A stretch of 64,000 nt of DNA from NCBI GenBank assembly GCA_011523305.1, contig WTHB01000010.1, positions 20,526-84,525 on the forward strand, in the 5' to 3' direction. A program made the translations under genes and the position numbers. Positions 23,310 through 49,475 of this stretch are shown here, one piece after another. The notes beneath the pieces were generated by a model, which was given only the letters and a program-made list of their open reading frames with translations, ran no database searches and had not been told where the DNA came from. This DNA comes from Planctomycetaceae bacterium (GTDB taxonomy: Bacteria; Planctomycetota; Planctomycetia; Pirellulales; UBA1268). Numbering within the stretch: position 1 is the first letter of the stretch; the number at the start of each line of letters is the position of its first letter.

Positions 23310-26273
<2,964 letters not shown>

Positions 26274-27707: not shown

Positions 27708-27731
27708 CTTAACAGGGGAAGGGCCATCCCT

Positions 27732-31657: not shown

Positions 31658-32617
31658 ATGGCTGTCTGCAAGGAGATGACGTTGCGTACTCGGGCGATGG
31701 TCTTGTCCAGCGGTTTAGCCGTGCTTGCTGCCCACGTCATGCCGGTCATGCTGGCCATGGGGGCGGAGCCGGTGCGCTCAATCAGCCAGCAGGCTCCGGC
31801 AGCAGCCACCGACGAGATTTCCTCGGCTCGTGGTCTTCCGGACCTGCCGCCCGGGGTGCTCTCGCTTGATGAGGCTGTTACCGCCGACACGTTGGCTACG
31901 CTCGCTGGCCGGGTTGGTTGGCAGCGGCTTGCCGCCGACTCACAGATGGCCCCGGTCCGCGTCACCGTGACACCGGTTGAAGCGGCTGGTCGACGCATTG
32001 GCCATCAGGTGCAGGCAGCCTTCGTGATCAGAACACCACTGGAGACGTTTCAAGATGATGCCCTGGCAGCCGAAACACTTGGCCTGCAGGCGAATACGGC
32101 TGGACGGATGGCCCGGCCGCTCACAACGGATGAGTGCACGCAGGCTGGGCTTGAGGCAGCCGGTGCAAACACCTCCTTCGCGGTGCTGAACCTGACGCTT
32201 CTCAATCGGGTGGATCTCCAGGGTGTCGTGCGGGCTGAACGCCGGGATGGGGAGTCTGGCTTTGAACTCGCCTGGGTATTCGATCACCGGTTTGACCGGT
32301 TTCCCAGTCTCCGGGCCCACAGCCAGCGGCGGACGGCCAACGCCCTGGGGGAAACCGTCAGGGAAGATCCCCAGCCCTATGCCGGTGCGGCCGGGGTTTT
32401 GGTGGTGCGAGAGGTGAGGGGCATGGCAGCCGACCCGGAAGAGTCGTTGCTGGTGGTGGAGTCGCGGCTGGCCTTCGCTGAGCCGGTGGCCTGGTTTGGT
32501 GGCAGCAATCTGCTCCGTGCCAAGATTCCCCTGCTGACCCAGGAAGGTGTTCGGACTCTCCGCCGGCGGCTAGCAACAGTGCCAACTTCAGCTGCCGCAG
32601 GTGATGCAGCTCATTAG
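31658..32617 (+). CDS. Hypothetical secreted protein (319 aa), 2-nt gap after the phosphatase gene
   Basis: N-terminal hydrophobic signal-like segment (MVLSSGLAVLAAHVMPVMLAMGA). Protein-like composition. No family recognised. Confidence 0.55.
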   Translation: MAVCKEMTLRTRAMVLSSGLAVLAAHVMPVMLAMGAEPVRSISQQAPAAATDEISSARGLPDLPPGVLSLDEAVTADTLATLAGRVGWQRLAADSQMAPVRVTVTPVEAAGRRIGHQVQAAFVIRTPLETFQDDALAAETLGLQANTAGRMARPLTTDECTQAGLEAAGANTSFAVLNLTLLNRVDLQGVVRAERRDGESGFELAWVFDHRFDRFPSLRAHSQRRTANALGETVREDPQPYAGAAGVLVVREVRGMAADPEESLLVVESRLAFAEPVAWFGGSNLLRAKIPLLTQEGVRTLRRRLATVPTSAAAGDAAH

Positions 32618-33747: not shown

Positions 33748-33939
33748 AGAGCATCGACCAATCCTTTCGCCAACTCCCCCGTTGTCGTGCCGAGCCGATC
33801 GGTCACAGCCATTTACGGCGGCCCCGTAAGTCGCGTGGGGTCGCCAGGTTCTCCACTCTGCCAGAGGTGCTTTTTGAACGATTCGACAGGGACCAACGCC
33901 CGCCAGACACCCTCGGCAACGTTCCGAACCGACCGGGTG

Positions 33940-34692
33940 ATGCTCGTCAGGCTGTCACTCACCGCCACAGATGAGGTGTGTGGCCGGCTGGAGCAGCTGC
34001 TGTCCGCAGAGGAACGAGAGCGGGCCCTGCGGCGGCTCCCAACGGTCCGGCGGCGTGCCGTCGTCAGCCGGGGGCGGCTGCGGCAACTGCTGGGGCGGGT
34101 GCTCAACCTGCCGCCCGCTGAGGTCGTCTTGCAGACGAATCAGCATGGCAAGCCGGGCCTGACGGGAAGCCTTGCCGGCAGGTGTGAGTTCAACGTCACG
34201 CACTCCGGGGATGAGGGGCTGATTGCGGTGGCGGTCGATCGACCGGTCGGTGTCGATCTGGAAATCGGGAAGCCGACGCAGACGGTTGACTGGGCCAGGT
34301 TGATGGCTGGAACCATTTTTGGGGAAGCAGAACTGGCTCGGTGGCAGGGCGTGCCGGACAGTCAGGCGGCTGCTGCAGTCCTTGATGCCTGGGTTACCAA
34401 GGAGGCTGTCTTCAAGGCGGTTGGCACCGGCATTGGAGACCGCCTCCGGCAGTGCGAACTCCCGTCGGTCATTCCCCGGGTCGATCTGACAGCGTGGGCT
34501 GCACCGGTTGACTGTCAACTGGTCAAGGTGTCGCCGCTGGGGCCGGCATCAGCCGCGGAGTCTGGCGTCGGGGTGACGCTGCTCAGCCTGCAGCCCACCT
34601 GGCACGTCGCAGTTGCCACCACTGCGGCTCGCTGCAGTCTGTGGCTGACGGATTTCGAATCAGTCTTGCGGGGGGATCTGCCGCTCCGCTGA
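33940..34692 (+). CDS. Sfp-type 4'-phosphopantetheinyl transferase
   Basis: From the Met at 33940. Has FNVTHSGDEGLIAV, VGVDLE and WVTKEAVFKAVG (PPTase motifs 1 to 3). The upstream part of the 301-aa ORF has odd composition and was trimmed. Confidence 0.85.
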   Translation: MLVRLSLTATDEVCGRLEQLLSAEERERALRRLPTVRRRAVVSRGRLRQLLGRVLNLPPAEVVLQTNQHGKPGLTGSLAGRCEFNVTHSGDEGLIAVAVDRPVGVDLEIGKPTQTVDWARLMAGTIFGEAELARWQGVPDSQAAAAVLDAWVTKEAVFKAVGTGIGDRLRQCELPSVIPRVDLTAWAAPVDCQLVKVSPLGPASAAESGVGVTLLSLQPTWHVAVATTAARCSLWLTDFESVLRGDLPLR

Positions 34693-35616
34693 TTGCTGGG
34701 CGGGTGGCTGGAGAGGAGCGAGGGCCTGCTGAATGGCCGCAGCGAGTTGCAGCAGGGCCGGGGCAGTGTAGCTGCTGCGCGTGGCGTTCTGCCGGAGTGC
34801 CGGCGACCAGGCCAGATCGGTGCCGGGGGGGAGGTTGAGCAGGGCAAAGGCGTCCTGGGTCGGCATGCCGAGGAAAAACTGGCTGGCATCGACGTAGATT
34901 GCCCGGTCGTCACGGGTGCCCTCGGCGACCCACCGGGGTGGATCTGCTGTTGGCTCCAGGCTGCCGTGCGCCTGCTGCTTGAGGAGCCAGACGCAGGAAC
35001 TGCAGCGTCCGGTCGAGGCCTCCACCCAGATGAAGTGTCGCATGATCACGGGGGTTGGGCGTCCCTCGCGGTAAAAGCGGGCATCCACATCGACTACCTG
35101 CATCGTCTGATTCATGCCGATGCAACGCAGTTCAGACAGATGACGGCCATTGGCTGCCAGCACCTGCCGGCCGATCATGTCGATTCCCGCCGCTGCTGGT
35201 GGATTGTCGGTAGCAATCACGGTCAGGCTGCCGTCGAGTGGCACCGCGTAGCCGGCACCGACCTCCTGAAGCTGAAACACTGGGGGCTGCTGGGGGGCAC
35301 CCGTTTTTGACACGGTGGCCAACAAGGCGAGAGTGAAGAGCGGGACCCGCTGGCGGATCATGGCGGGGACGGAGTTGGCGTTCCCGCTGGCGATCCGGGA
35401 GGTAGCCGAATAGATTGACCGATTCCAGCGTGCCGCTGTCGGATCACCCACCACGGTTCCGGCCGCGACGGCTGTCAGCGGGTGGGCAGTCGAGGTGTCG
35501 GCTGCCTGGACGCAGGCGGTGCCCCACCAGGCCATGACCGCAAGTGCCAGCAGGCAGATGCACTCCACGCCGGGCCACCGAGATGGCAGAATAAAGTTCC
35601 GCGTGTTCATCGGCAT
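34660..35616 (-). CDS. Hypothetical secreted protein (about 319 aa)
   Basis: From MPMNTRNFILPSRWPGVECICLLALAVMAWWGTACVQA (signal peptide). No family recognised. The 3' end overlaps the convergent PPTase gene by 33 nt. The start is divergent from the ABC ATPase gene. Confidence 0.55.
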   Translation of the reverse strand: MPMNTRNFILPSRWPGVECICLLALAVMAWWGTACVQAADTSTAHPLTAVAAGTVVGDPTAARWNRSIYSATSRIASGNANSVPAMIRQRVPLFTLALLATVSKTGAPQQPPVFQLQEVGAGYAVPLDGSLTVIATDNPPAAAGIDMIGRQVLAANGRHLSELRCIGMNQTMQVVDVDARFYREGRPTPVIMRHFIWVEASTGRCSSCVWLLKQQAHGSLEPTADPPRWVAEGTRDDRAIYVDASQFFLGMPTQDAFALLNLPPGTDLAWSPALRQNATRSSYTAPALLQLAAAIQQALAPLQPPAQQSAERQIPPQD

Positions 35617-35663: not shown

Positions 35664-36392
35664 GTGGAATCAAGGCTGAATGGCGGCAGGCCGGCGGACT
35701 CGCAAGCCCCTGGGGGAGCGGTGGTTGCGCTACGGGATGTGACCAAAGTCTATCGGGACGGCAACGTGCGGGCGGTCTCCGGGGTGTCGCTGGAGGTTCC
35801 AGAGCAAGGATTTCTGTCGGTGACGGGCCCCAGCGGTTGTGGAAAATCAACCCTGCTCAATCTGCTCGGTGGGCTCGATACGCCGACCAGCGGCGGCGTT
35901 TTTTTTCGGGGACAATCGCTGGCGACGCACAAAGACCTCGACAGGCTTCGCAGCCGCACGATTGGCTTTGTCTTTCAGACGTTCCATCTGTTGCCGAACC
36001 TGACCGCCCGGGAGAACGTCCAACTGCCGATGTTCGGTGATGGTCGTCGCGATGCCGAGCGGGAGGCCCAGGCGGCGGCACTGCTGGCGCGAGTCGGTCT
36101 GGCCGACCGCGAAGACCATCTGCCAGGGGCACTTTCGATCGGCCAACGCCAGCGGGTGGCAATCGCCCGTGCCCTGGCCAATCAGCCGGCACTGCTTCTG
36201 GCAGATGAGCCGACTGGCAGCCTCGACAGTGAGAGTGGCACCACGGTGATGGATCTGCTTGGTCACCTCCATGCTGATCTTGGCATGGCGATGGTCGTCG
36301 TTACTCACGATCCGGCGGTGGCCGAACGTGCTGAGCGGACTGTGCGGATGCTCGACGGGCGGATCGTCAGTGATACGGCTGGTTGTCCTTGA
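35664..36392 (+). CDS. ABC transporter ATP-binding protein, MacB/LolD/FtsE-like subfamily
   Basis: Walker A GPSGCGKSTLLN, Q-loop, signature LSIGQRQRVAIARAL, Walker B LLLADEPTGSLD, H-loop VVVTHD. The true start may be downstream of 35664. Confidence 0.9.
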   Translation: MESRLNGGRPADSQAPGGAVVALRDVTKVYRDGNVRAVSGVSLEVPEQGFLSVTGPSGCGKSTLLNLLGGLDTPTSGGVFFRGQSLATHKDLDRLRSRTIGFVFQTFHLLPNLTARENVQLPMFGDGRRDAEREAQAAALLARVGLADREDHLPGALSIGQRQRVAIARALANQPALLLADEPTGSLDSESGTTVMDLLGHLHADLGMAMVVVTHDPAVAERAERTVRMLDGRIVSDTAGCP

Positions 36393-36458: not shown

Positions 36459-39400
36459 TTACGACATGACCGCTGCCTCAAGCGCGTCCCGGATGGCTGT
36501 GGCCAGGGTGGACGCGTGTGGCAGGGCGACCATGCTGTGATGGTGTCCGGGTACTTTGCTGACCTCCACGGAACGCAGGACCTGACTCCAGCCCCGGTCA
36601 TCCGGGCCACTCACGTCCACCGGGACTTCTTGCGGGCGGAACAGCACCCCGTCGGTATCGAGTGGCTGGGCGGTGCACTGATTGCAGAGCTGGACATGGT
36701 GGGAGAAGAGCCGCTGGAGGTCAGCAAGAACCTGTGAGACGAGAGCTTCGGGTGCCGTCGCTTCGATCAGACCAAGCTGTCGGGCATGGTCGTAGAGAAA
36801 CGGCAGCTGTTCCGAGGCTGGCAGGTTGCCAAGGGCTTCCAGGCTGATGTCGAGCCCGTATTCGCGGCCCGTTGACTGGTCGCTGCCGTTCACGCAGGGC
36901 AGGCTGGAGTCGAACAGGATCAGCCGTTCGACCTGATCTCCCTCGGCAATGAGTTGCCGGGCAACTTCACTGGCGATGACGCCGCCGAGTGACCAGCCGC
37001 CGAGGAGGTAGGGGCCGACTGGCTGGACACTGCGGAGGGCCGACGCATAGTCAGCAGCCATGGACTCGAGGCTTGCTGGGAGGGCTTCCTCGCCGTGCAA
37101 ACCACGAGAGCGAATCCCCAGCAGTGGCCGGGCCGGATCAAACTGCTGGGCGAGCGCTGCATAGCAGACAACGATGCCTCCGGGAGGATGTACCAGGAAC
37201 AGCGGTGGCAGGGAGCCCGTCGGCTTCAGCGGCACGATCAGGGGATGATGGTTAGCCGCCGATGTGACCGGGGCAGCCGGGGCCAGCGAGGCGTCTCCAA
37301 AGCGGGCCGCAACCGCCGCGGGATGCAGGTCGCCGAGCCGTTGTGCGATCTGGCTGATGTCTGCCAGGTCAAACAGCAGGACGGTTGGCACATGGACGCC
37401 GAGGTCTTCGCTGAGCTTGGCGGTGAGCATCGCTGCCTGAAGTGAGGTGCCACCGAGGTCAAAAAAGTTTTGATTGATACCGATGCCATCGAGCCCGAGG
37501 GTCTCCTGCCAGCGGCTGACAAGATGCTCCTCCAGCGGAGTTCGCGGTGCCAGGGGGGCTATCGCCTCCACCGTGGTTGGCCGCTCGGCTGCCAGGCGGG
37601 TGCGGTCGATTTTGCCACTGCTTGTGCGTGGCAACTGGTCCAGCAGCGTGAGTGTGGCCGGCCGCTTGATCCCCGGCAGATGAGCCGCCAGGTGTTGCCG
37701 GAGCGTTGTCAACGCAGTGGTCACGTCAGTCTGTGCGGTTACAACGACAAAACCAGCTAGCCGGGCTTCTGGGGTGCCTGGGGCCACCACCGTGACGGCT
37801 GCTTCGGCCACGCTCGGGTGGGCGGCCAGGCAGGCTTCGACCTCCCCAAGTTCGATCCGATAGCCCCGCAGTTTGACCTGACCATCGAGTCGGTCGAGGA
37901 ACTCGATGCAGCCGTCCGGCCGTCGCCGACACCGATCGCCAGTCAGATAAGCCCGCAGCGGTCCTTGGCTGCTCTGAAGGGTGATGAAGCGCGCCGCGGT
38001 GAGTTCAGGCCGCCCCAGATAGCCCCTGGCCAGACCTGGGCCGGCAATCACCAGTTCTCCCGGTACGCTGTCGGGAAGGGGCCGCTGATTTTCATCAACA
38101 ATCAGCAGCGTCGCTCCGGCCGCGGCGGTGCCCAGGGGGATGCGGCGCAGGCCGTCATGACTTCGTGGCACCGGCCAGACGGCGGCTTCGACGGTCGTCT
38201 CAGTCGGTCCGTAGAGATTCCACAAGGTCACCTTCGGTAGCCGGCCAACCCGGCGCGGCAGGTCAGCCGGCATCGCCTCGCCTCCGCACCAAATCTGACG
38301 GAGGCTGACGCATTCGGAAAATCGCGGATGCCGTCCTATCAACTGCAGCAGTGAGGGTGTCACCGGTAGCACGGTGATTTCATCGCGAATCACCTGGTCG
38401 ATCAACGCGTCGATGTCACGGCCTGCTTCGGTGTCAGCCAATACCAGCGTTGCGGCTGCCTGCAGCGTTGCCAGTGTCACGCCGAGGGCGGCATCGAACT
38501 GGTGGGAAAAGAGCAGCATCACGCGGTCCGTGGCAGCCAGAGGAATCTGCTGCTGCCGCCAGGCGAGGAGGTTGGCAATGGCTCCCTGTTCGATCAGCAC
38601 ACCCTTTGGACGCCCGGTCGAACCGCTGGTGTAGATGCAGTAGGCCAGGTCGGTGGTGGCCAGGTGCGGAAGAGTTTGCTCGGCAGGCGGATTCGTCAAC
38701 TCGTCCAGCCGAATCAAGTGAAGGCCCTCGGCGGCCGGGGAGTCGTCATTCGAGATGCCTGCAATGACCATGCAGCGAGCGGCGGTGTCGGCGAGCAGGT
38801 CGTCGCTGCCCACGGCTGGCTGCCGCTGGTCAACTGGGGTCGGTGCGTAGCCGGCCAGCATGGTGGCAACCGTGGCGACCACCGCCTCGCCACCTGTACC
38901 GAAGACCGGCACAAGGCTACCGACGGGCAGACCGGTTGCGGCCAGTTGCTGGTGCAGCGACTGCGCAAGGTTGTCCAGATCACGGTAGTGCCAGGTGGTC
39001 TCGCCGGCGATGACCGCTGAGCGATCAGCGGCCTCAGTGACCGCTGGGGCGAGCTGGTCGGAAACCGTGCCGTGGGCCGCGGTGCCGGCTGCTGCGTCCA
39101 ATGCCAGTTCGGACGAGGTGGCCCATGGTAGTTCAGAGAGCGGTTGTTCGGCCGCTGCGAGCAGTTCGCTGGTGAGGGTCTCCAGATTCCTGGCCAGGCA
39201 GGCGATTGTTGCCTGGTCGAACAGATCGGTCGCGTAGTGGATCATGCCGCGACAGGATGACTCGGTCTGCTCGAAGACAAACTCGATATCGTGGACGCAG
39301 GCCTGTTGGGGAACATGAAAACTCTCTTGGCGGAGCCCCGCAAAGTCCACCGCTTCGGCCCGGTCAGGAAAGAGGAAGCCGGCGCGACCAGCCTCTTCAC

Positions 39401-42400
39401 GACGGTGTGCTTTCTCGAAGGTGCACGACACCTGGAATAAGGGATTACGGCTGGGATCGCGGGCGTGGGGTGTGTCGGCGATGATTGCGGCCAGCGGATA
39501 GTCTTCGTGCTCAAGGGCTCCCAGGATCATCTGGCCGGTCCGTTCGACCAGCGTGCGAAAGGATGGGTCATCCCCAAGCCGCACAGGGATCGGCAGCATG
39601 TTGACGAAGAATCCAACCGTGTTTTCGAATCGTTGCTCACTGCGGCCGGAGAAGGGCATGCCGATGAGGAAGGAGGTCTGGCCCGACAGACGGGCGAGCA
39701 ACACTTCCACAGCAGCCAGCAGCACGGCCGACGGGGTCACGCCGGCGGTTGTTGCCAGCCGGCTGATTGCCGCTGACGTTACCGTCGACAGCGTCATTGG
39801 TTCGCTGGCCGCGTGGCCGGTGAAATGGCGGGGCCGGGGTCGGTCAGTTGGCAGGTCAAAGACGGTGGGAATGCCAGCGAGCGTCTGCTGCCAGAAGGTC
39901 TGCAGGCGTTCACGTGAATCCGCTTCGAGCAGTTGATGCTGGCGGTCGACGAACGCAGCGTAGTTGTTGGTGGGTGGGGGCAGGTCGGCAGCCATGCCGG
40001 CGGCCAACTGACGATAGCCGACGGCAATCTCCTGCAAAAGCAGAATCAGTGACCAGAAGTCGACGGCGATGTGATGGGTGGTCGCCTGCACCACCCAGTC
40101 GTCTTCTGCCAGTTTGAAGGCCGTCACCCGTAGCAGGGGCCCCCGTTCCAGATCGAAGGGCAAATGGGCATCTGCCGCAGCCTGGACCTGCACCTCGGCT
40201 TCCGAAAGGCCCGTGGCATCGACCACCGTAAACCGGGGCGGTAACGAATCATGGACCTGTTGCAGGAGCCGGCCCCCGGCATCGGAAAAAGTGGTCCGCA
40301 GGGTGGCATGCCGCTCGACCACCATGTGCATCGTCTGCTGGAGTGCTGCCACGTCGAGCTGGGACCGCACCCGGGTGGGAAGAAAGACGTTGTAGGCCGT
40401 GTCAGCGGGGTTTCGTCGGGCAGCAGCCCAAAGCCCGCGCTGCCCGGCTGAGAGCGGGAACGCTCGGGCGGCCGGCATCTCATGCGGGGACGCGTTGGCG
40501 GGGGCACCGGATCCGCTCGCGTCTGCCTGAACGCTCTCCGGTGAGCCTGCCTCTGCCAGCGTGCCGCAGAGCATGTCAATCAGCTCCGTCACACCAGTGC
40601 TCCGCATTAGTGCGGAGATCGCGAGGCTGATGCCGGTTCGGTTTTCAATCCAGTTGCGGAGTTCAACTGCCATGAGGGAGTCGAGGCCGAGTTCGAGCAG
40701 TGCCCGCTCCCGCTCAAGCTGCTCTGGGTCAATGCCCAGAAGCCCCGCCGCCTTGTCGCACACGACCGTTTCGACCATCGTGCGGCGGACAGGTGCCGCA
40801 GCGGTACGAATGGTTTCCGGGGTGATGGTGACTGCCTGGCTCGAGCCACTTTCGTTGCTGCGTGCCTGCAGCAGGTGGGCGAATTTGGGTGGCACATTGT
40901 CGGTGATGCCGAGGCCTCGCCAGCGACTCCAGTCCATTCGCAGAACGCTCAGCTGGATTTCACGTGAGGCGATCGCGTAGCCCAGGCAGGCCATCGCCTG
41001 CTGAACCGTGAAGCTGAGCACACCCTGTCGCTCCAACCGCGCGCTTAGTTCATTACGGCGGGCGAGGTACCCGACCTCGCCGAGGTGGCCCCAGTTGATC
41101 ACCGTGGCTGGCAGGCCAAGGTGGCGGCGGTGATGGGCCAGGCCGTCCAGTGCGGCATTCGCTGCGGCATAGTTTGCCTGTCCGGCATGTCCGAAGACGC
41201 TTGAGAGCGAAGAGAAGACCACGAACTGCTCGAGGTCGAGTCCGCAGGCCAGCGACTCTTGGTGAAGGTTCCAGCCGCCAAGTACCTTGGGCCTCAGGAC
41301 ACGATCGAGCGTGGCATGGTCGAGGTCAACAAGCAGGCGGTCCTCAAGCACCATCGCGGTGTGGAAGATGCCCCGGAGGGGCCGCTCCTCGGTGCTGATT
41401 GTCTTGAGGACACGTCGGACCTCTTCCGGTTTGGTAATGTCGGCCGGCAGCAGTCTGACTCGCGTTCCGGCCGCCTCCAGTTCACCGATCACGGCAGCCG
41501 CCTCAGCGGAGACCTGGAGACTGCGGCCTCCGAGAATCAGCGTGCCCGCCCCCCGGCTGGCCAGCCAGCGGGCAACCTCAAGGCCAAAACCGCCGAGCCC
41601 ACCTGCGACCCAGTAACTTCCGTCGGGATCGCAGGCGAGGGTGCCGGTGGTTGCCGGATGGATTGGGGCAGGCGGCGTGGTGTAGTCGATCACCAGTTTG
41701 CCGATATGGCGGGCCTGCTGCATCGAACGGAAGGTGGCAACTGCCTCGGTTGCGGGCTGCACCGTAATCGGCAGGGGGTGTAGCTCTCCTGATTCGAACC
41801 GTTCTGGAAGTGTCCGCAGCAGTTCACCCATGCGGCGAGGCTGTTGCTTGAAAAGTTGGTCCAGGTCGATGCCGAAGAAGGCGATGTTGTTCCGGAACGC
41901 GTAGAGCCCCAGGGCGGCATCACCGTAAATGTCCCGTTTGCCGATCTCCAGAAATCGCCCGCCAACGGCCAGTGCCTCGATGCCCCGGGGAATCGCCTCG
42001 CCGGGCAGGCTGTTGAGGATGATGTCGACGCCACCACTGAGGCGGTGGGCTTCATCAGCAAAGGCGAGGCTGCGGGAGTTCATCACTGCGTCGGCACCCT
42101 GTTCGCGGACGAACGCCCGTTTCTCATCGTTCCCAGCAGTGGCCAGAACGCGGGCGCCGGCGAGTCGGGCCAGTTGAATGGCTGCTAGGCCAACACCACC
42201 GCTGGCAGCATGAATGAGCACCGTATCGTCAGCCCGCATACGGCCGCAGGTTTCCAGGGCATGAATGGCAGTGAGGAACGCGATGGGTAGGGCGGCAGCC
42301 TGCTGGTGGGAGAGGTTCCGGGGCTTGCGGGTCACCAGATCGGTGGCCACAACCACATGGGTGCCGAAGGCACCGGGGGCAACTGCCATCACCTCGTCAC

Positions 42401-45400
42401 CGGGCTTCCAGCCCGTGACAGCCGTTCCCACCCGGCTGACGATGCCGGAGCATTCACTGCCCAGCACGGGCCGTCCCGGAGGCAGGCCCGGGTAGAGCGA
42501 GAGCACCTTCATGACATCGCTGAAATTGAGCCCCGCGGCATGCACTTCGATTTCGATGTCATGGGGGCCAAGTACCGGCAGCTGCACGAGGCGGTGATGA
42601 AGGTCCTCGACGCCGGCCGAGTCGCCCACCTCAAGTCGGGCCGGCAGGCTGGCGGTTGCCGCTGGGCAGGCGGTGTTGGTGGCATGAGGATGGAAGCGGC
42701 GGACCCAGCGGCGGCCCCGCCGCAGCAGAACCTCGTCTTCACCGTCGTCGCGACGGAGTTCCTGGACCAACTCAGCGAGGGCTGGGCGGGAATCGGCCGG
42801 CAGATCGACGAGCCGCGTTCGGAGCCGGTTGTATTCACTGGCAATCACCCGGCCCATGCCGATCAGTGGTGTCTGCGAGACGTCAACCGCTTCGGCGGTC
42901 GGGTCGGTCGTCTGAGCTTGTGCCGTCACCAGAAAGCAGGGCGTCTGGCCGGTCGGGCTGGCTGCCTCCCAGGCCTGCACCAGATGCAGCGGAGCCCGGC
43001 ATGTCAGGTGGGTACTGGCATCGAGGGCTGTGGTGGAAAGGGATGAGGTTCCCGGGGCATCGAGCGACCAGAGCCCAACAATGCCACCGATTGTTCCAGG
43101 GTCGATTGCCTCAAGCAGGCTGGTGAAGCCCGCCCGGTCGTTCGGGTTGAGGACGAAGGTTCCATCAGCCTCCTTGGAAAACCTGCTCCCAGGTCGCACG
43201 CAGACGACCTCATCTCCTGCCTCAACCAGCAGGGCCATGAGCTGATCGGTCGTCTCGTCGGCCGTTCCAAACAGCAGCCAGCGGGTTGCTGCCGTGGGCG
43301 GAGCAGCCGGGACGGCATCCTGTTCAACCCAGTCGAGGCGGTAGACCAGGTCGGCGGTGGTTTCGGCGGGGCCACTGCCCGTCACCCGGTGGCTGACAAA
43401 GCCGCGTATGCTCAGACAGAGCTGATCGGTTTCAGCCTCGTAGATATCGATGTCGGCAACGATGCGATCGTCGCTGCGGTCCCTGATTTGGACATGCACC
43501 GTGGCGGTGGCACCGGGTGAGCCTGCCGCGCGGATCTCGGCGATGGTATGCGGTAGGTAGAGGCCGGAGATCGTGTGATCAAAGTCTCGGTCCGCGGCGA
43601 TCATGCCATGAAAGCAGGCGTCGAGGAGGGCGGGGTGGACGGTGTAGTCGGCTACGTCTGAGGCGGTTGCCTGAGGAAGGTGGACCGCAGCCACGCACTC
43701 GCCCTGGCGGCGGTGCCCGTGGGTGATGCCACGAAACTGTTCCCCGTACTCAAGCCCGAGCCGGTCGCAGTAGTGGTAGAGGCGGTCCGCAGCAAAGGCC
43801 TCATCACAGCGGTCGCGGGCCGAGGCGAGGCTGGTGGTCAGCGGGGCAGGTGCGGCAGGTTCGCTTGCAATTGTGAGCGATGCGAGTTCGGTCCAGTCGC
43901 TGTCATCGACGCTGCGGTCGGCGAAGCTGAGACTGCGGCGATCGGGTCGGTAGCGGCATTCCATCCACCGGGCCGAAGCCTCGTCATGAATGCAGGCCTG
44001 CTTCAGGGTCAGGCGTTCCAGACGGATGGCCCCGGTCTCATCTCCTGCCAGACCGCGGGCCGCGGCAAGGGCCGCCTCAAGAAAGGCTGCGGCAGGATGC
44101 ACGCAGGCGCCGCGCACCCGGTGGTCTTGCAGATAGGTCTGCAGCCGCAGGTCGATGCGGCCCTGCCAACGGGCCTCGGGGCCATCAGCCCGCTCTCCAA
44201 GCAGGGGGTGCAGCGAGCGGCCCTCTCGGGAGAGCCGGGCCTCGCGGGACTCGTCCCGCAGGTATTTGGTCTGGAAGGGCTCCGGAGGGACGGGCAGGCG
44301 TCGTTGCGGGCGGGGATGGAGACGACTCCAGTCGATTGGGAGGCCACGGGTGGAGAGCCGGCCCAGGGACCCTAGCATGGCGTCGACGTCGTCTTTTTCG
44401 CGATGGAGCGACGGCAGGGTCTCGATCGTCTGGCCCGCCGCCTGGAAGCATTCATTGATGGCGTAGGCGAGGACCGGGTGGGGGCCAATTTCGATGGCCA
44501 TGTGAGTGCCACGGCTGGCCAGACAGGCCATGGCGTCGGCGAAGAGCACCGGCTGACGGACGTTCTGCCACCAGTAGTCAGCGGTGAGTTGAGGGCCGTC
44601 GAGCAGCCGTCCGGTGACTGTGGAGAAGAGTGGCACAGAGGTCTGCTGGGGGGTGAGATCGGCCAGCGACCGGAGTAGTTCTTCCCGGACCGGCTCCATC
44701 AGCGAACTGTGGAAGGCATATTCCACCGTCAGTCGCCGACAAAAGATGCCAGCGGCCTCAAAACGTCCGGCCAGATGTTCAATGACCTCGGCAGTCCCGG
44801 ACAGTGTCAGCGAGGTCGGGCCGTTGACGGCTGCGATGGCGATCAACTGCTCGTCGTCATCGACCCAGCCAGCAAGTTCGTCGCGGGACAGTCCGACCGC
44901 GAGCATTGCCCCCTGCGACGAGGCAAGGTCCATGGTGCGTCCCCGGTGGAAGGCAACCTGGCAGGCCTGTTTGAACGAGAGTCCACCGGCGACATAGGCG
45001 GCAGCGATTTCACCGACACTGTGGCCAACGCAGGCAGCAGGCTCGATTCCCCAATGCTTCCAGACGGCAGCAATGCCGGTCTGTACCGCGAAGATGGCTG
45101 GTTGGGCAAACCGTGTTAGCTTCATTCGAGAGCTGCTTTCATCGCGGAGTAGTTCTTCCACGAGTGACCAGTTGCCGTAGCGGGAAAACTCAGCGGCACA
45201 TTCCTCAATCACCCGGCGAAAGACGCCGCTGGAGGCGAAGAGTCGGCGTCCCATCGCCCACCACTGGGGGCCCTGGCCACTGAACACGAAGGCAATCTGG
45301 TCTGCATGCAGGTCGGTGCGGCGGTCGCTGGCCTGGCCGTTCGGCAGACTGGTTGCCGCGTCCCGGAGTTGGGTGATCAGGTCGGCATGGTCTCGAGCCA

Positions 45401-47090
45401 CGAAGGCCGCACGAGACAGCCCACCGCTGCGCCGATGGGCGAGGAAGGCGGCGATCTCACTCAGACTGATGGCTGCCCCGCCGGTCGTGCTGGAGTCCTC
45501 AAGCCAGGTGGCGAGGCGGTCGGCGGTGGCGGCGAGGCTCCGCTGATCGCGTGCGGCCACGGGGATAAGCAACGGTTCACTCACCCATTCCGAGGCGGGC
45601 TCACGATCAACAACTGAGGCCGAGGAAGATCGGCCCACCCCGCTCGCCGTCGGGCTCCGGCGAGCGTCGGGGGGAAGCAGGGGGGGGACCGGAGGCTCTT
45701 CGAGGATCACATGGGCATTCGCGCCGCCGTAACCAAAGCCATTGATGGCGGCGAGTCGCGGCTGTGGGTCTCCCGCGTGATCCGTGCCAGGCCATTCACA
45801 AGTCGCTGTGGGGACGCGGAGGCCGAGGCGGTCGAAGTCGATGGCCGGATTGGCCTGCTGAAAGTGCAGGTGGGCTGGAATGCGGCGGTGCTGCAGCGAC
45901 AACGCCACCTTGATCACGCTGGCAATGCCTGCGGCTGCCTCAAGGTGGCCGATGTTGGTCTTCACCGAGCCAATCAGGCAGGGACGGTCGGCGGGTCGAC
46001 CAGCACCGATCACGCTCCCGATGGCATTGGCTTCGATCGGATCTCCGACCGGCGTCCCTGTTCCATGGGCTTCGACATAACTGATGGCTGTTGGCTCGAT
46101 GGCAGCCTGCCGGCAGGCCTCACGAATGAGTTGTTGTTGGGCCTCGCCGTTGGGAACCGTCAGGCCGGCGGTGCGGCCATCCTGGTTTGAGGCAGTCGCG
46201 CGGATGACGGCATAGATCAGGTCACCGGCAGCGATGGCATCACGGAGGGGCCGAATCAGCACCATGCCAGCCCCTTCGCTTCGGACGTAGCCGTTGGCTC
46301 TGGCATCAAAGGTTTTGCAACGGCCATCGGGAGAGAGCACCCCGAGTTGGCTGAAGGCGACGGTGAAGTCGGGCATCAGCAGGGCGTTGACCCCACCGGC
46401 GAGCGCCATCGTGCTTTCCCCACGACGGATCGATTCACAGGCAAGGTGAACCGCCAAGAGAGAAGACGAACAGGCCGTATCGATGGCCAGACTCGGCCCG
46501 CGGAGATCGAATGAGTAGGAAATGCGGTTGGCAGCAATACTCGAGGACCCACCGGTGTTGCTGTAGGGGGTGATGACCCCGCGGTCCTGAAAACTGAGTG
46601 AGGCCACTGCATGGTCAAACGAGGAAATTCCAACGAAGACGCCAACGGCATCACCGGCCAGCTGCCGGGGGCTGCGACCGGCATCTTCGATGGCCCGCCA
46701 GGCAACTTCCAGCAGCATCCGCTGCTGAGGATCCATCATTGCTGCTTCCCGCGGGGAGATAGCGAAAGCCCACGGGTCAAAAGCCTGAATGTCGGTGACA
46801 TGACCACCCCAGCGGCTGAGCAGTTTGCCGGGGCTGGCGGAGCCAGAACGGTAGAACTTGGGGGTGCTCCAGCGGTCGGTGGGGGTTTCCGTGATTGCAT
46901 CCCGGCCCGAGTTGAGCAGGTTCCAGAAGGACGGCCAGTCGTTGGCTCCGCCGGGAAGACGACAGCCAATTCCCACGATGGCCAGTGGCTCACTGGCGGC
47001 GGGGGTGTCGGTGTTGCGGGCGACTGCGGTCTGCAGTCGCTGCCAGGCAGCAAGACGATTGGGGGAGTCGGGGTGGTTGGCGTCGTACAT
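36459..47090 (-). CDS. Hybrid type I PKS-NRPS megasynthase, 3543 aa: KS-AT-DH-(psiKR)-ER-KR-ACP-C-A-PCP-TE
   Basis: Motifs were read in the translation, and two were checked back to nucleotide positions.
- KS (about 45711..46988): DTACSSS (Cys codon 46470..46472), EAHGTGT, NIGHLE.
- AT (about 44391..45302): GHSVGE, YAFHS.
- DH (about 43371..44219): HPLL, HRVRGACVHP.
- ER (about 41685..42623): LIHAASGGVGLAAIQLA.
- KR (about 41076..41627): GGLGGFGLEVARWL, VLEDRLL, NYAAAN.
- ACP (about 40566..40793): LGLDSL.
- C (about 39141..40469): HHIAVDFWS, with the HH codons at 40071..40076.
- A (about 37581..39023): YTSGSTGRPKG, NLYGPTE, GELVIAGPGLARGY, GYRIELGE, SGKIDR.
- PCP (about 37326..37547): FFDLGGTSL.
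- TE (about 36471..37223): GWSLGG. Confidence 0.95.
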   Translation of the reverse strand: MYDANHPDSPNRLAAWQRLQTAVARNTDTPAASEPLAIVGIGCRLPGGANDWPSFWNLLNSGRDAITETPTDRWSTPKFYRSGSASPGKLLSRWGGHVTDIQAFDPWAFAISPREAAMMDPQQRMLLEVAWRAIEDAGRSPRQLAGDAVGVFVGISSFDHAVASLSFQDRGVITPYSNTGGSSSIAANRISYSFDLRGPSLAIDTACSSSLLAVHLACESIRRGESTMALAGGVNALLMPDFTVAFSQLGVLSPDGRCKTFDARANGYVRSEGAGMVLIRPLRDAIAAGDLIYAVIRATASNQDGRTAGLTVPNGEAQQQLIREACRQAAIEPTAISYVEAHGTGTPVGDPIEANAIGSVIGAGRPADRPCLIGSVKTNIGHLEAAAGIASVIKVALSLQHRRIPAHLHFQQANPAIDFDRLGLRVPTATCEWPGTDHAGDPQPRLAAINGFGYGGANAHVILEEPPVPPLLPPDARRSPTASGVGRSSSASVVDREPASEWVSEPLLIPVAARDQRSLAATADRLATWLEDSSTTGGAAISLSEIAAFLAHRRSGGLSRAAFVARDHADLITQLRDAATSLPNGQASDRRTDLHADQIAFVFSGQGPQWWAMGRRLFASSGVFRRVIEECAAEFSRYGNWSLVEELLRDESSSRMKLTRFAQPAIFAVQTGIAAVWKHWGIEPAACVGHSVGEIAAAYVAGGLSFKQACQVAFHRGRTMDLASSQGAMLAVGLSRDELAGWVDDDEQLIAIAAVNGPTSLTLSGTAEVIEHLAGRFEAAGIFCRRLTVEYAFHSSLMEPVREELLRSLADLTPQQTSVPLFSTVTGRLLDGPQLTADYWWQNVRQPVLFADAMACLASRGTHMAIEIGPHPVLAYAINECFQAAGQTIETLPSLHREKDDVDAMLGSLGRLSTRGLPIDWSRLHPRPQRRLPVPPEPFQTKYLRDESREARLSREGRSLHPLLGERADGPEARWQGRIDLRLQTYLQDHRVRGACVHPAAAFLEAALAAARGLAGDETGAIRLERLTLKQACIHDEASARWMECRYRPDRRSLSFADRSVDDSDWTELASLTIASEPAAPAPLTTSLASARDRCDEAFAADRLYHYCDRLGLEYGEQFRGITHGHRRQGECVAAVHLPQATASDVADYTVHPALLDACFHGMIAADRDFDHTISGLYLPHTIAEIRAAGSPGATATVHVQIRDRSDDRIVADIDIYEAETDQLCLSIRGFVSHRVTGSGPAETTADLVYRLDWVEQDAVPAAPPTAATRWLLFGTADETTDQLMALLVEAGDEVVCVRPGSRFSKEADGTFVLNPNDRAGFTSLLEAIDPGTIGGIVGLWSLDAPGTSSLSTTALDASTHLTCRAPLHLVQAWEAASPTGQTPCFLVTAQAQTTDPTAEAVDVSQTPLIGMGRVIASEYNRLRTRLVDLPADSRPALAELVQELRRDDGEDEVLLRRGRRWVRRFHPHATNTACPAATASLPARLEVGDSAGVEDLHHRLVQLPVLGPHDIEIEVHAAGLNFSDVMKVLSLYPGLPPGRPVLGSECSGIVSRVGTAVTGWKPGDEVMAVAPGAFGTHVVVATDLVTRKPRNLSHQQAAALPIAFLTAIHALETCGRMRADDTVLIHAASGGVGLAAIQLARLAGARVLATAGNDEKRAFVREQGADAVMNSRSLAFADEAHRLSGGVDIILNSLPGEAIPRGIEALAVGGRFLEIGKRDIYGDAALGLYAFRNNIAFFGIDLDQLFKQQPRRMGELLRTLPERFESGELHPLPITVQPATEAVATFRSMQQARHIGKLVIDYTTPPAPIHPATTGTLACDPDGSYWVAGGLGGFGLEVARWLASRGAGTLILGGRSLQVSAEAAAVIGELEAAGTRVRLLPADITKPEEVRRVLKTISTEERPLRGIFHTAMVLEDRLLVDLDHATLDRVLRPKVLGGWNLHQESLACGLDLEQFVVFSSLSSVFGHAGQANYAAANAALDGLAHHRRHLGLPATVINWGHLGEVGYLARRNELSARLERQGVLSFTVQQAMACLGYAIASREIQLSVLRMDWSRWRGLGITDNVPPKFAHLLQARSNESGSSQAVTITPETIRTAAAPVRRTMVETVVCDKAAGLLGIDPEQLERERALLELGLDSLMAVELRNWIENRTGISLAISALMRSTGVTELIDMLCGTLAEAGSPESVQADASGSGAPANASPHEMPAARAFPLSAGQRGLWAAARRNPADTAYNVFLPTRVRSQLDVAALQQTMHMVVERHATLRTTFSDAGGRLLQQVHDSLPPRFTVVDATGLSEAEVQVQAAADAHLPFDLERGPLLRVTAFKLAEDDWVVQATTHHIAVDFWSLILLLQEIAVGYRQLAAGMAADLPPPTNNYAAFVDRQHQLLEADSRERLQTFWQQTLAGIPTVFDLPTDRPRPRHFTGHAASEPMTLSTVTSAAISRLATTAGVTPSAVLLAAVEVLLARLSGQTSFLIGMPFSGRSEQRFENTVGFFVNMLPIPVRLGDDPSFRTLVERTGQMILGALEHEDYPLAAIIADTPHARDPSRNPLFQVSCTFEKAHRREEAGRAGFLFPDRAEAVDFAGLRQESFHVPQQACVHDIEFVFEQTESSCRGMIHYATDLFDQATIACLARNLETLTSELLAAAEQPLSELPWATSSELALDAAAGTAAHGTVSDQLAPAVTEAADRSAVIAGETTWHYRDLDNLAQSLHQQLAATGLPVGSLVPVFGTGGEAVVATVATMLAGYAPTPVDQRQPAVGSDDLLADTAARCMVIAGISNDDSPAAEGLHLIRLDELTNPPAEQTLPHLATTDLAYCIYTSGSTGRPKGVLIEQGAIANLLAWRQQQIPLAATDRVMLLFSHQFDAALGVTLATLQAAATLVLADTEAGRDIDALIDQVIRDEITVLPVTPSLLQLIGRHPRFSECVSLRQIWCGGEAMPADLPRRVGRLPKVTLWNLYGPTETTVEAAVWPVPRSHDGLRRIPLGTAAAGATLLIVDENQRPLPDSVPGELVIAGPGLARGYLGRPELTAARFITLQSSQGPLRAYLTGDRCRRRPDGCIEFLDRLDGQVKLRGYRIELGEVEACLAAHPSVAEAAVTVVAPGTPEARLAGFVVVTAQTDVTTALTTLRQHLAAHLPGIKRPATLTLLDQLPRTSSGKIDRTRLAAERPTTVEAIAPLAPRTPLEEHLVSRWQETLGLDGIGINQNFFDLGGTSLQAAMLTAKLSEDLGVHVPTVLLFDLADISQIAQRLGDLHPAAVAARFGDASLAPAAPVTSAANHHPLIVPLKPTGSLPPLFLVHPPGGIVVCYAALAQQFDPARPLLGIRSRGLHGEEALPASLESMAADYASALRSVQPVGPYLLGGWSLGGVIASEVARQLIAEGDQVERLILFDSSLPCVNGSDQSTGREYGLDISLEALGNLPASEQLPFLYDHARQLGLIEATAPEALVSQVLADLQRLFSHHVQLCNQCTAQPLDTDGVLFRPQEVPVDVSGPDDRGWSQVLRSVEVSKVPGHHHSMVALPHASTLATAIRDALEAAVMS

Positions 47091-47125: not shown

Positions 47126-48268
47126 TCAGGAAATCTCTCGAAAGGCCTCAGTGGGCAACAGGGCTGCTGCCCGCCGCGCTGGCAGCCAGGCACCGAGCAG
47201 ACCGATACCGAGGGCAATGACAAAACCTTGGCCAAGCGTGGTGGCGTTGATCACTGGCACGATCATGCCCCCGGTTGCAGGCGAGCGACTCAGCAGGCCC
47301 GTCAACGCATACGCGGCCAGCCCGCCAATGAAGGCGGCGGCCAGGGCCAGGCCGCATGACTCCAGCAGGATCATCAGCATGATCCGTCCGCGGGGCCAGC
47401 CGATTGCCCGAAGGATGCCAATCTCACGCGTCCGTTCGTGCACGCTGGTCATCATCGTGTTGAGCGTGCCGATCCCACCGATGATCATTGCCACCAGCGA
47501 GGTCATCCAGGCCATGCCGTCAGCCAGTTTCAGCCGCGTGTCCGTCTGAACGAATTCAGCTGTTGCCAGGGCAAGCAGCCGCGGGTCGACGGCCTCGATG
47601 GCTGCAACCGCTGAGGGCAGGTCGGTTGTCGATTCCAGCACTACGTTGACATAGGTGACCTGTCCGTCGCGGCCAGTGAGTTCCTGGAGAACCGGCAAGG
47701 GCAGAATCAGCGAGCCGTTCTCCCAGACACTGTGACTACGAAAGACGCCCACGATTCGGAAGGGCTCACCAAAAACGGACAGGGATGCACCGCTGTGCAG
47801 GCCCAGGCGGTCAGCGAGATTCTGGCCAACGAGCAGTTCGCGGGCATTGGGGCTACTGAACTGCGGCGGCCCTGCTGCCGGGCCGGCAGAGCCAGCGACT
47901 TCGTAGTCGGCAAGCAGCCATGAGTCGCTCGGCAGTCCCATGGTGGGAATGCCATAGATGCCCTCGTCCTCAAGGGAGAGCGTCTCAAGGAGCACGCCCG
48001 CCGTCCGAGCTACCCCCGGAAGGGCGGAGAGCTGCCGACTCGCGTCCTCCGAGACGGCGCTGCTGAGTCGGTCGGCCGCGCCCTGGCGTGAGACCACGAT
48101 GTCAATCTGATGGGCATCGTAGACATCAGCGAAGGCGCGGCGGAACCCGCGGCTGATGCCCAGCAGGGCGACAATCGCGGTCATCGCCGTCGCCAGCGCA
48201 GCCAGGGTCAACGCCGTACGAAACGGCCGGCGCACGATGTTTCGATAGACCAGTTCTGGAAACCGCAT
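47126..48268 (-). CDS. ABC transporter permease, FtsX/MacB/LolCE-like (4 TM with a large periplasmic domain)
   Basis: N-terminal TM (RPFRTALTLAALATAMTAIVALL), about 220-aa extracytoplasmic domain, and a C-terminal FtsX domain with TREIGILRAIGWPRGRI. 35-nt gap to the PKS-NRPS start on the same strand. Confidence 0.88.
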   Translation of the reverse strand: MRFPELVYRNIVRRPFRTALTLAALATAMTAIVALLGISRGFRRAFADVYDAHQIDIVVSRQGAADRLSSAVSEDASRQLSALPGVARTAGVLLETLSLEDEGIYGIPTMGLPSDSWLLADYEVAGSAGPAAGPPQFSSPNARELLVGQNLADRLGLHSGASLSVFGEPFRIVGVFRSHSVWENGSLILPLPVLQELTGRDGQVTYVNVVLESTTDLPSAVAAIEAVDPRLLALATAEFVQTDTRLKLADGMAWMTSLVAMIIGGIGTLNTMMTSVHERTREIGILRAIGWPRGRIMLMILLESCGLALAAAFIGGLAAYALTGLLSRSPATGGMIVPVINATTLGQGFVIALGIGLLGAWLPARRAAALLPTEAFREIS

Positions 48269-48683
48269 GGCAAGGGAGACGGAGCCAGAGAGACGAGGGG
48301 ATTGCCCCCAATAAAACCCCCGAAACGGTGGGTTGGCAACCTGGCGAGGTGGCTCCGTCGGTGCATCTGCGAGGCGACCTGACCGAATTTGCGGAAAAAA
48401 CGGTTTCGGAAGCCAGTTCGGGCAGCCTCACAAAGGTGGGGTCTGGGTGCCGCGGGTGAAGCGAAAGAAACCGCCACCGCGAAAGGGCCCATGCCCGCTG
48501 GTGGCGTGCGTGCTCTGCGGCGACTGGGCTGCGGCAGCAGGAAGTACCGGTTCTGCGGAAAGAATCGCTGCTCGGGTGAGGCGTCCGCCGATCGAGCGGA
48601 GTATGAGACCGACTTGGGAGAACGGAGGGCCCTGGGGGCTACGCTGGTGGGGTGGCCCTCTGGGAGGACCGTGCCGTCTCACG

Positions 48684-49475
48684 ATGAGCCGGTACCTGCT
48701 CGTCGTCGTGCTGGTCTTCGGGGGAAGCAGCCAGGGGCGAGCAGGTGAGCCAAAGGAACTCCATACCGATCGAGATGCCTTTACCCCCTCGGTCTATACG
48801 ATTCGTCCAGGTCAAGTTCTGAACGAGATGTCGCATGTCTACATTGAGAATCGCGAAGGGAAGCCGACCAACAACTATCCCGAGTACATCATGCGGATCG
48901 GGGCAACCGATCGGTTTGAGTGGCGACTTGGCGTCAATTATTCAGTCGGTTCGCAGGGGAATGTGGTGACCAGTGTCGAGGCGGGGGAGCTGCCGCTCGA
49001 TGGCAGTACCCTGTATGAGTCAAATTTCCTGTACGGCTTCAAGCTCTCAACGACAGATCAAGATGGCTGGATTCCAGCAAGTTGCTTCATCATGGAAGCA
49101 ACCACTCCGATGTACGGGCAGGACTTCGGAACCGAGCCGGTCGCAACCGTGGCTTTTGGTTGGGAGTTTCCCACGCACTGGCGGTTGGATGCTGCGATGC
49201 GATATGCCTACGCCGAATCCGAGATCAACTGGTTCAGCCGTTGGGGGCCGTCAGTGGTCCTCCGGGTGCCGGTCACTGACCGCTGGGAGGTCCATGCTGA
49301 ATACTTCGGCACCTTTAATCAGGGGCTGCCCGACGAAGTGAACCGGCCTTTCTTCAGCCCTGGCACACACTTTGTGATAAACGAGCGGATCGAACTCGGG
49401 CTGCGTGTGGGCTGGGGAATGACCCGGGACGCAGCGAATTTCTTTTCGGATGCCGGTCTGGCGATTCGCTATTAA
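48684..49475 (+). CDS. Putative outer-membrane beta-barrel protein (MetA-pathway 'transporter'-like)
   Basis: From the Met at 48684: signal peptide MSRYLLVVVLVFGGSSQGRAG, alternating hydrophobic beta-strand pattern, and a C-terminal FFSDAGLAIRY ending in an aromatic residue. The family assignment is tentative. Confidence 0.5.
   Translation: MSRYLLVVVLVFGGSSQGRAGEPKELHTDRDAFTPSVYTIRPGQVLNEMSHVYIENREGKPTNNYPEYIMRIGATDRFEWRLGVNYSVGSQGNVVTSVEAGELPLDGSTLYESNFLYGFKLSTTDQDGWIPASCFIMEATTPMYGQDFGTEPVATVAFGWEFPTHWRLDAAMRYAYAESEINWFSRWGPSVVLRVPVTDRWEVHAEYFGTFNQGLPDEVNRPFFSPGTHFVINERIELGLRVGWGMTRDAANFFSDAGLAIRY

Follow-up and report, generated by a model that had tools for sequence, protein, structure and literature searches.

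A loader-less, fully reducing PKS-NRPS of Pirellulales encoded beside a MacB-type exporter and a phosphopantetheinyl transferase

A 64,000-nucleotide stretch of Planctomycetaceae bacterium contig WTHB01000010.1 (hereafter, the window) carries, at positions 36459–47090, a gene for a hybrid of a polyketide synthase (PKS) and a nonribosomal peptide synthetase (NRPS). The host is a freshwater planctomycete, and the gene belongs to a Pirellulales/Planctomycetota family. Its product, the megasynthase, is a complete, intact and fully reducing PKS module that has no loading domain and is fused to condensation (C), adenylation (A), peptidyl carrier protein (PCP) and thioesterase (TE) domains; the gene is conserved together with genes of a phosphopantetheinyl transferase (PPTase) and a MacB-type exporter. 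We judge it evenly balanced whether, as we prefer, the PKS half acts as a dedicated iterative "mini-FAS" (FAS, fatty acid synthase) that would pass a saturated acyl chain to the C domain, the resulting N-acyl amino acid then being exported. A previous reading of the letters alone (the sequence-only reading) had compared the enzyme with synthases of polycyclic tetramate macrolactams (PTMs) to which an enoylreductase had been added.

The megasynthase and its domains

The domains identified with Pfam follow the order KS-AT-DH-psiKR-ER-KR-ACP-C-A-PCP-TE, where the first seven stand for ketosynthase, acyltransferase, dehydratase, pseudo-ketoreductase, enoylreductase, ketoreductase and acyl carrier protein. 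All features listed here are on the minus strand.

36459..47090, minus: megasynthase open reading frame (ORF), single uninterrupted frame, 3,543 aa (ORF list and translation, Pfam)
46992..47090, minus: N-terminal leader, 33 residues, polar, unconserved in homologues, without a conserved docking helix
45861..46991, minus: KS, residues 34-410 (PF00109/PF02801); Cys207, His342 and His382 intact
44343..45290, minus: AT, residues 601-916 (PF00698); GHSVGE, RGRTM, YAFHS
43368..44210, minus: DH, residues 961-1241 (PF21089/PF14765); HRVRGACVHP, LLDACFH
42651..43277, minus: psiKR structural subdomain, from residue ~1272 (weak PF21394 match at 1272-1345)
41688..42569, minus: ER, residues 1508-1801 (PF08240/PF00107/PF13602); NADPH motif HAASGGVG
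41082..41621, minus: KR, residues 1824-2003 (PF08659); B-type with LED for LDD, Ser/Tyr intact
40569..40763, minus: ACP, residues 2110-2174 (PF00550/PF23297); LGLDS
39120..40463, minus: C, residues 2210-2657 (PF00668); HHIAVD
37611..39041, minus: A, residues 2684-3160 (PF00501/PF13193); specificity code DAGPWGLVEK
37335..37547, minus: PCP, boundaries approximate, the second PP-binding stretch; GGTSL, Ser at 3215
36489..37205, minus: type I TE, residues 3296-3534 (PF00975); GWSLGG, His in PGHHHSM

The sequence-only reading had described a KS whose active-site cysteine and both histidines are intact, and every motif that it quoted was found where it had been placed. In the KS, DTACSSS occupies residues 204-210, HGTGT residues 342-346 and NIGH residues 379-382. 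The AT motifs GHSVGE and YAFHS lie at residues 689-694 and 791-795, and LIHAASGGVGLAAIQLA lies at residues 1625-1641. The KR sequence VLEDRLL, correctly recognized before as an LED variant of the B-type LDD motif, spans residues 1914-1920. The claim that the inserted psiKR-ER segment makes the module fully reducing is upheld by the Pfam order and by the intact ER motif. The remaining signatures are also intact: HxxxGxxxxP of the DH, Ser and Tyr of the KR, the serines of both carrier domains, HHxxxD of the C domain, A3, A5 and A10 of the A domain, and GxSxG and the His of the TE. A single polypeptide contains both module types of a PKS-NRPS hybrid, and neither its carrier domains nor its catalytic motifs are impaired. 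An exact-sequence look-up of the megasynthase returned no record.

In the AT fingerprint, malonyl-CoA is indicated when GHS is followed by a hydrophobic residue and the catalytic His is preceded by Phe, whereas methylmalonyl-specific ATs carry GHSQG and YASH. The motifs GHSVGE, RGRTM and YAFHS of the window AT indicate malonyl-CoA as its probable substrate; of these, YAFHS had been the basis of the earlier assignment to the malonyl type, and the other two add to it. A methyltransferase hidden between the DH and the ER was considered and rejected since the DH-ER spacing is too short: the gap of 266 aa has space for the psiKR alone, and Sup-type PKS loci have ~2.9 kb there. A low-complexity stretch of ~45 residues with a high content of Pro, Ser and Arg (PPVPPLLPPDARRSPTASGVGRSSSASVVDREPASEW) is inserted into the KS-AT linker (window 45291-45860, minus strand).

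Relatives, protein start and amino-acid module

A scan of one genome per species revealed the full architecture at five loci (L001-L005), all in metagenome-assembled genomes (MAGs) of Pirellulales or Planctomycetia. The proteins encoded there are 60-92% identical to the megasynthase over nearly the full length; identity is 70-94% in the ER and 77-97% in the KR, in both cases above the DH, ACP, C and A domains. A homologue search at the protein level returned only proteins of <1,000 aa (fragments and frameshifted long-read calls), and architectures were rebuilt from the loci instead. The ranks of an ACP-C search of representative genomes were filled by giant multi-module NRPSs, which profit from summed scores.

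More distant planctomycete copies were taken from metagenome contigs. Locus L078 has the same domain order and a KS identity of 63%, and is broken by long-read frameshifts and an insertion sequence (IS) element. On its 5.65 Mb contig the synthase is split into eight gene calls by many frameshifts, as is typical of uncorrected long reads, and a DDE transposase gene (19549-20994) sits inside the A domain. Locus L081 also keeps the domain order, with a divergent FtsX-ABC operon, and the L086 synthase has 3,502 aa. L079 and L080 belong to one genome and lie ~100 kb apart on the same 1.07 Mb contig of a long-read MAG. L079 holds a PKS-only stretch (KS to ACP, 9998-16480) after an FtsX gene, and L080 an ER fragment with C-A-PCP-TE (8445-14061) beside another FtsX gene. 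A split system, a rearranged pseudogene or a misassembly could each explain this arrangement.

The ATG of the megasynthase at 47090 is the first start following an in-frame stop, and the stop codon of the FtsX/MacB permease gene lies 35 nt upstream of it. At eight of eight loci (L001-L005, L078, L079 and L081) the KS motif GIGCRLPG was found 20-47 residues from the nearest start, with in-frame stops upstream. These stops rule out a hidden N-terminal extension. The missed upstream exon or frameshift that the sequence-only reading had asked to be looked for was not found at any of the eight loci, and the leader that it had put at about 34 residues is one of 33, poorly conserved. Leaders of the homologues are polar and rich in Pro, Gly and Ser, with no conservation. 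A helix-like stretch of the window leader, NRLAAWQRLQTAVAR, is kept only in L004, and Pro/Gly/Ser-rich sequence takes its place in L001, L002, L003 and L005. Some of the nearest cyanobacterial KS relatives carry LSPxQRxLL docking helices at the N-terminus; the planctomycete family has none. Since ~80% of the 120 nearest KS relatives begin with Met and a short leader directly followed by the KS, an N-terminal KS is the rule in this part of KS sequence space. A KS-first start is therefore less unusual than the sequence-only reading had implied, and it is also normal in MAS-like iterative PKSs.

When the large window ORFs were scanned with Pfam, no loading AT/ACP, fatty acyl-AMP ligase (FAAL), CoA ligase, GNAT, free ACP or second PKS/NRPS gene was detected, and tblastn of all 11 domains against the whole 64-kb window gave no match outside the ORF (best E = 0.11). 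Nor does a loader, FAAL, CoA ligase or ACP adjoin any of the eight homologous loci, L078 and L081 included, whose flanks differ. The earlier statement that neither the protein nor the adjacent genes provide a loader is thus confirmed and extended. In the Sup-type fully reducing PKS loci that the genome scan also retrieved, a divergent adenylate-forming gene often stands next to the PKS; none of the planctomycete loci has one. At L012, L029, L043, L050, L054 and L066 a FAAL-like gene lies ~2 kb upstream of the first KS on the opposite strand; Sup-type loci with such a gene come from sponge symbionts and Chloroflexota.

The ten-residue specificity code of the A domain was extracted by anchoring on the A4, A5 and A10 motifs. 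The code, DAGPWGLVEK, is the same in L001 and L004; L002, L003 and L005 differ at position 322 only, and the code of L080 is DAGSWGLIEK. By the same mapping the distant relatives L078 and L081 yield DPGEVGLLD? and DPAECGLVDK, which are ornithine-like. Their resemblance to DVGEIGSIDK, the ornithine code of a PTM synthase (PMC3992020), supports the mapping. Asp235 and Lys517 indicate that the predicted substrate is an alpha-amino acid, and the acidic Glu331, together with the ornithine-like codes of the distant relatives, hints at a cationic side chain. The code DAGPWGLVEK is absent from the searchable literature; literature searches for specificity codes and for the exact domain string brought up either papers on fungi or no relevant ones. 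When the A domain and the TE were ranked against PDB, the matches were generic and predicted neither substrate nor release.

Conserved neighbours and the rest of the window

The genes that surround the synthase gene are as follows.

47126..48268, minus: MacB/FtsX-type ABC permease (PF12704 and PF02687; NCBIfam MacB/LolCE-like)
48333..49475, plus: putative outer-membrane beta-barrel of the MetA/phenol-degradation family (PF13557), divergent from the permease
35664..36392, plus: LolD/MacB/DevA-like ABC ATPase (Pfam, NCBIfam), convergent with the synthase
34660..35616, minus: secreted protein of ~300 aa, a signal peptide or transmembrane helix followed by a beta-rich domain
33787..34692, plus: Sfp/HetI-type PPTase (PF01648/PF22624; best NCBIfam match HetI)
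32614..33747, minus: S49 (SppA-like) peptidase (Pfam), the same neighbour in L084 and L086

The permease gene is on the same strand as the synthase gene, with a gap of 35 nt, and the two are probably co-transcribed. In L001-L005 and L079 the permease gene immediately precedes that of the synthase; in L081 its orientation is divergent. The ATPase gene is kept in L001, L004, L005, L081, L084 and L086. The linkage of FtsX, synthase and ABC genes survives rearrangement, as the divergent operon of L081 and the L079 locus illustrate. The features of a MacB-type (type VII) exporter are present: a permease with PF12704 and PF02687 and an ATPase with PF00005, whose best NCBIfam matches are LolD, MacB and DevA, each below its equivalog cut-off.

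The start of the secreted-protein gene was moved from 35850 to the Met at 35616, and as a result the gene does not overlap that of the ATPase. The 24 homologues of the protein are each hypothetical, unnamed or planctomycete, and it appears to be confined to planctomycetes. Its AlphaFold2 (AF2) model is confident (pLDDT 86.5), with a beta-rich core and C-terminal helices; no Pfam or NCBIfam match was found for the protein and no PDB fold match for the model. The gene occupies the same position in L001, L084, L085 and L086. In the last three it stands between the ABC ATPase and PPTase genes and is adjoined by the latter. An ORF at 34693-35310 on the plus strand was rejected as an antisense shadow of this gene: it has no homologues, its translation is junk-like, and GC3 favours the minus frame. 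The order of secreted protein, PPTase and S49 peptidase is repeated in L084 and L086; it is uncertain whether the peptidase, though syntenic, is part of the system. The barrel gene is syntenic in L004 and L005, and in L001 and L002 only short matches (27-42 aa) are seen at contig ends.

Two of these loci show further features. In L085, which belongs to a more distant relative, the trio of ATPase, secreted protein and PPTase genes (9039-11753) has no megasynthase or FtsX gene within 10 kb. In L084, which comes from the genome of L005, genes of an integrase, a small terminase subunit and a family A DNA polymerase (14135-20903) start ~1 kb past the S49 peptidase gene, with one unannotated ORF between; these phage-like genes point to a prophage or island bordering the syntenic block.

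The genes around the cluster are housekeeping ones: components of pyruvate dehydrogenase (PDH) and 2-oxoglutarate dehydrogenase (OGDH), LpxA and chemotaxis. Window positions 17303-29387 form a dense block of 2-oxoacid dehydrogenase genes. Features of this part of the window are listed here.

17303-18832 and 28002-29387: two dihydrolipoamide dehydrogenase paralogues
18932-21790: PDH E1
21959-23293: E2
23310-26273: OGDH E1
15718-17412, minus: HTTM-domain (vitamin K-dependent carboxylase-like) membrane protein
3479-4399, minus: XerC/D-type tyrosine recombinase

Known systems and the possible mode of action

Single-module PKS-NRPSs that make PTMs, with the order KS-AT-DH-KR-ACP-C-A-PCP-TE and no loading domain in the order stated, are iterative (PMC10308959, PMC11933527) and work with malonyl units (PMC10308959, PMC3992020). 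Like the megasynthase, PTM synthases of the HSAF and ikarugamycin type are one KS-first polypeptide without a loading module, in which one PKS module is followed by C-A-PCP-TE. The order of PTM synthases has no ER, whereas the window enzyme has an intact one (PF08240/PF00107, HAASGGVG) between the DH and the KR. Its code is DAGPWGLVEK and not the ornithine code DVGEIGSIDK, and no PTM tailoring genes (FAD-dependent oxidoreductases, dehydrogenase, hydroxylase/P450) are found nearby in the window. Also unlike in PTM clusters, the gene is conserved alongside those of an ABC exporter, a PPTase and a secreted protein, and the host is a planctomycete. Judged by these sequence features, the enzyme is not a PTM synthase, as every PTM feature tested fails. 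Of the likeness to PTM synthases drawn by the sequence-only reading, the architecture stands; the ER, the code and the missing tailoring genes do not fit it.

Mas and Pks2 share with the window enzyme the KS-first order KS-AT-DH-psiKR-ER-KR-ACP and the removal of the acyl chain by a C-domain-type catalyst. MAS is iterative, and the C-domain homologue that removes its product from the ACP is PapA5 (PMC12370991). Residues 35-2179 of the megasynthase align to positions 3-2085 of the 2,086 in the model of MAS-like Pks2, NF041183, and the score is 1201.8 bits against an equivalog cut-off of 2400. With half of the cut-off reached, the PKS half appears to be MAS-like in layout and yet not a member of the Pks2/MAS family. 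Unlike in Mas/Pks2, the AT motifs (GHSVGE, YAFHS) are malonyl-type rather than methylmalonyl-type; the C domain is fused and followed by A-PCP-TE, so that the acceptor would be a carrier-bound amino acid and not a polyol; and the FadD-type FAAL partner is missing, no adenylate-forming gene being found outside the ORF in the 64 kb or in the flanks of homologues. By analogy, the locus may work like a fusion of PTM and MAS ideas.

Other systems resemble the locus in part. Fungal highly reducing PKS-NRPSs (PsoA; the LovB PKS-C) are likewise iterative KS-first reducing PKSs fused to a C domain (C-A-T in PsoA). They score far lower, with 330-346 bits for the KS compared to 472 for CurL and 106 bits for the C domain compared to 192 for Txo2. 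Fungal hybrids also have a methyltransferase, an ER that is often inactive, and a reductase/Dieckmann end instead of a TE. In the bacterial comparisons, the nearest PDB relatives of the C domain are ordinary elongation C domains such as Txo2 and Txo1. A plasmid of Deinococcus sp. QL22 (NZ_CP097152.1; L083, 6906-22799) encodes a PPTase, a KS-first fully reducing PKS of 2,583 aa and an NRPS of 1,285 aa, along with a thioester reductase, a class III aminotransferase and a GNAT. This PKS is 39% identical over residues 33-2185, with the PPTase gene before it and the NRPS gene after it. Unlike in the window, the PKS and the NRPS are separate, a thioester reductase and an aminotransferase are present and not a TE, and no MacB-type transporter is annotated alongside. 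Judging from its gene content, this uncharacterised cluster is a putative split analogue with reductive release. The heterocyst glycolipid pathway of cyanobacteria comprises a FAS-like PKS, the HetI PPTase and the MacB-type lipid exporter DevBCA. NCBIfam similarities at the window locus recall this set: a FAS-like type I PKS occurs with a HetI-like PPTase and a DevA/MacB/LolD-like exporter. The heterocyst system differs in having no NRPS module and a glycolipid product, and no DevB-type adaptor was recognised at the window locus.

The mechanism that we propose would run as follows. The AT would load malonyl units. No loading domain would prime the KS; in the simplest case its starter would come from malonyl-ACP that is decarboxylated or from a short acyl unit that the KS loads itself. 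The set KS-AT-DH-ER-KR-ACP would be reused in rounds, like a small FAS, leaving a saturated straight acyl chain on the ACP. The C domain would then move this chain onto the alpha-amino group of the PCP-held amino acid, and the TE would free the N-acyl amino acid (lipoamino acid). Finally, the FtsX/MacB permease, the LolD-like ATPase and the outer-membrane barrel would move the amphiphile out of the cytoplasmic membrane. Iteration is favoured because no loader or FAAL adjoins the homologous loci although their flanks differ, because Sup-type loci often do carry an adjacent adenylate-forming gene, because KS-first iterative precedents exist (PTM, MAS-like), and because the ER and the KR are strongly constrained (70-97% identity, above DH, ACP, C and A).

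Several points weigh against this mechanism. Between a KS that is primed by a fatty acyl thioester and extends once and a PKS part that iterates, the sequence-only reading had made no choice. Iteration is probable from the absence of a loader, the architecture and the conservation, and nothing in the sequence proves it or decides between the two routes. A KS primed by acyl-CoA or acyl-ACP would lead to a product of the same class. The loader search covered 64 kb of the genome, and a FAAL or acyl-ACP ligase gene may lie farther away. The data do not predict which amino acid the A domain selects or whether the TE releases by hydrolysis or by cyclisation, and the assignment of the barrel is borderline (PF13557, 23.9 bits with a cut-off of 22). 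The KS itself appears most similar to ordinary modular cis-AT KSs, which rank above MAS, LovB and FAS: its bit scores against PDB are 472 for CurL, 467 for PikAI, 420 for Pks13, 411 for MAS, 346 for LovB, 330 for PsoA and ~290 for animal FAS, in a reference set of PDB structures that holds no PTM KS. A top match of 707 bits is to a two-KS construct, with scores summed. Candidates for a PTM synthase reference from a plasmid collection were rejected: H9 has a 600-aa N-terminal extension, H12 is one part of a line with several modules, and H3 turned out to be the split system of Deinococcus. The sequence-only reading had held that an ordinary cis-AT KS combined with a partner loader encoded beside homologues would speak against its view of the KS-first start; by similarity the KS does come closest to ordinary cis-AT KSs, but no loader stands beside any homologue.

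It is possible, though rather unlikely, that the KS is instead acylated by a ready-made fatty acyl-CoA or acyl-ACP, or by way of a distant FAAL, and performs one or few fully reducing extensions, the product again being an N-acyl amino acid. The PKS would then be mainly an adaptor that sets the chain on the ACP for the C domain. Mycobacterial MAS-like PKSs, which have the same domain layout with the KS first, are primed with long fatty acyl chains; the affinity of the KS to elongating cis-AT KSs and the visibility of 64 kb only also agree with such priming. Against it stand the lack of a FAAL, CoA ligase or ACP in the window and at the eight homologous loci, and the adjacent adenylate-forming gene that Sup-type loci of the same scan do have. 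We also infer that a 2,100-residue module would be a costly adaptor for a single C2 unit identical to that added by FAS, and yet its reductive domains are strongly constrained. It is quite improbable that reduction is programmed to be partial, as in fungal highly reducing PKS-NRPSs and PTM synthases, with the ER and KR skipped in some cycles, a beta-keto group left and the TE cyclising the product to a tetramate or macrolactam. Such an outcome would suit the PTM-like KS-first front and C-A-PCP-TE back, the resemblance of the L078 and L081 codes to DVGEIGSIDK, and the monomodular clade classed by NaPDoS2 as "iterative PTM", to which KSs of Planctomycetes are related (>70% identity) (PMC10308959). 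However, the cis-ER is intact and highly conserved, the window code differs from that of ornithine, PTM-type genes of a FAD oxidoreductase, alcohol dehydrogenase, hydroxylase or P450 are missing nearby, and the genes conserved alongside encode a PPTase and a MacB/LolD-like exporter of the lipid type.

The protein might also be the last subunit of a split assembly line that receives its chain by N-terminal docking from a PKS/NRPS subunit encoded elsewhere, as many KS-first proteins are downstream subunits and some of the nearest cyanobacterial KS relatives have LSPxQRxLL-type docking helices. This we consider very improbable: the helix-like NRLAAWQRLQTAVAR that would have to serve in the window leader is shared with L004 only, and neither the 64 kb nor the flanks of homologues contain another PKS/NRPS gene. 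The simplest collinear view of one loader-less module is that there is no iteration at all and that acetyl and one malonyl unit give butyryl-ACP, the product being a small N-butyryl amino acid signal. A MacB/LolD-type exporter and a putative barrel for hydrophobic substrates suit an amphiphile better than a small polar molecule, and no characterised precedent was found in the literature searched, which leaves this outcome extremely improbable.

Returning to iterative synthesis of a saturated chain, one may go further and suppose that a basic amino acid is N-acylated, possibly on both amino groups, and that the mono- or di-N-acyl product is put in or beyond the outer membrane by the transporter, the secreted protein and the barrel. 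PTM synthases acylate both amino groups of ornithine. We regard this extension as unlikely; if true, the aminolipid route would be a one-protein, OlsB/OlsF-independent pathway in Planctomycetes.

A 2023 metagenomic survey of KSs described a large "monomodular" clade, as yet uncharacterised, that NaPDoS2 assigns to the class "iterative PTM". Planctomycetes, Verrucomicrobia, Proteobacteria and Bacteroidetes were found to have related KSs in "PTM-like architectures", and the survey concluded that there are new PTMs still to be discovered (PMC10308959). Monomodular PTM-like planctomycete systems have thus already been noted, and the locus described here adds a so far uncharacterised variant to an enzyme type already known. 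If its KS belongs to the survey clade, the anatomy of the locus argues that such members do not make PTMs. The module is of the fully reducing kind, PTM tailoring genes and the ornithine code are both missing, and genes of a lipid-type exporter and a PPTase accompany that of the enzyme. These features suggest that the product of this Pirellulales family is a lipoamino acid rather than a macrolactam. Planctomycetes have many orphan PKS/NRPS genes and almost no known products. A self-primed iterative FAS that feeds an NRPS would, if true, be a compact single-gene route to defined N-acyl amino acids, useful for engineering, and it would bear on how planctomycetes build or decorate their envelope.

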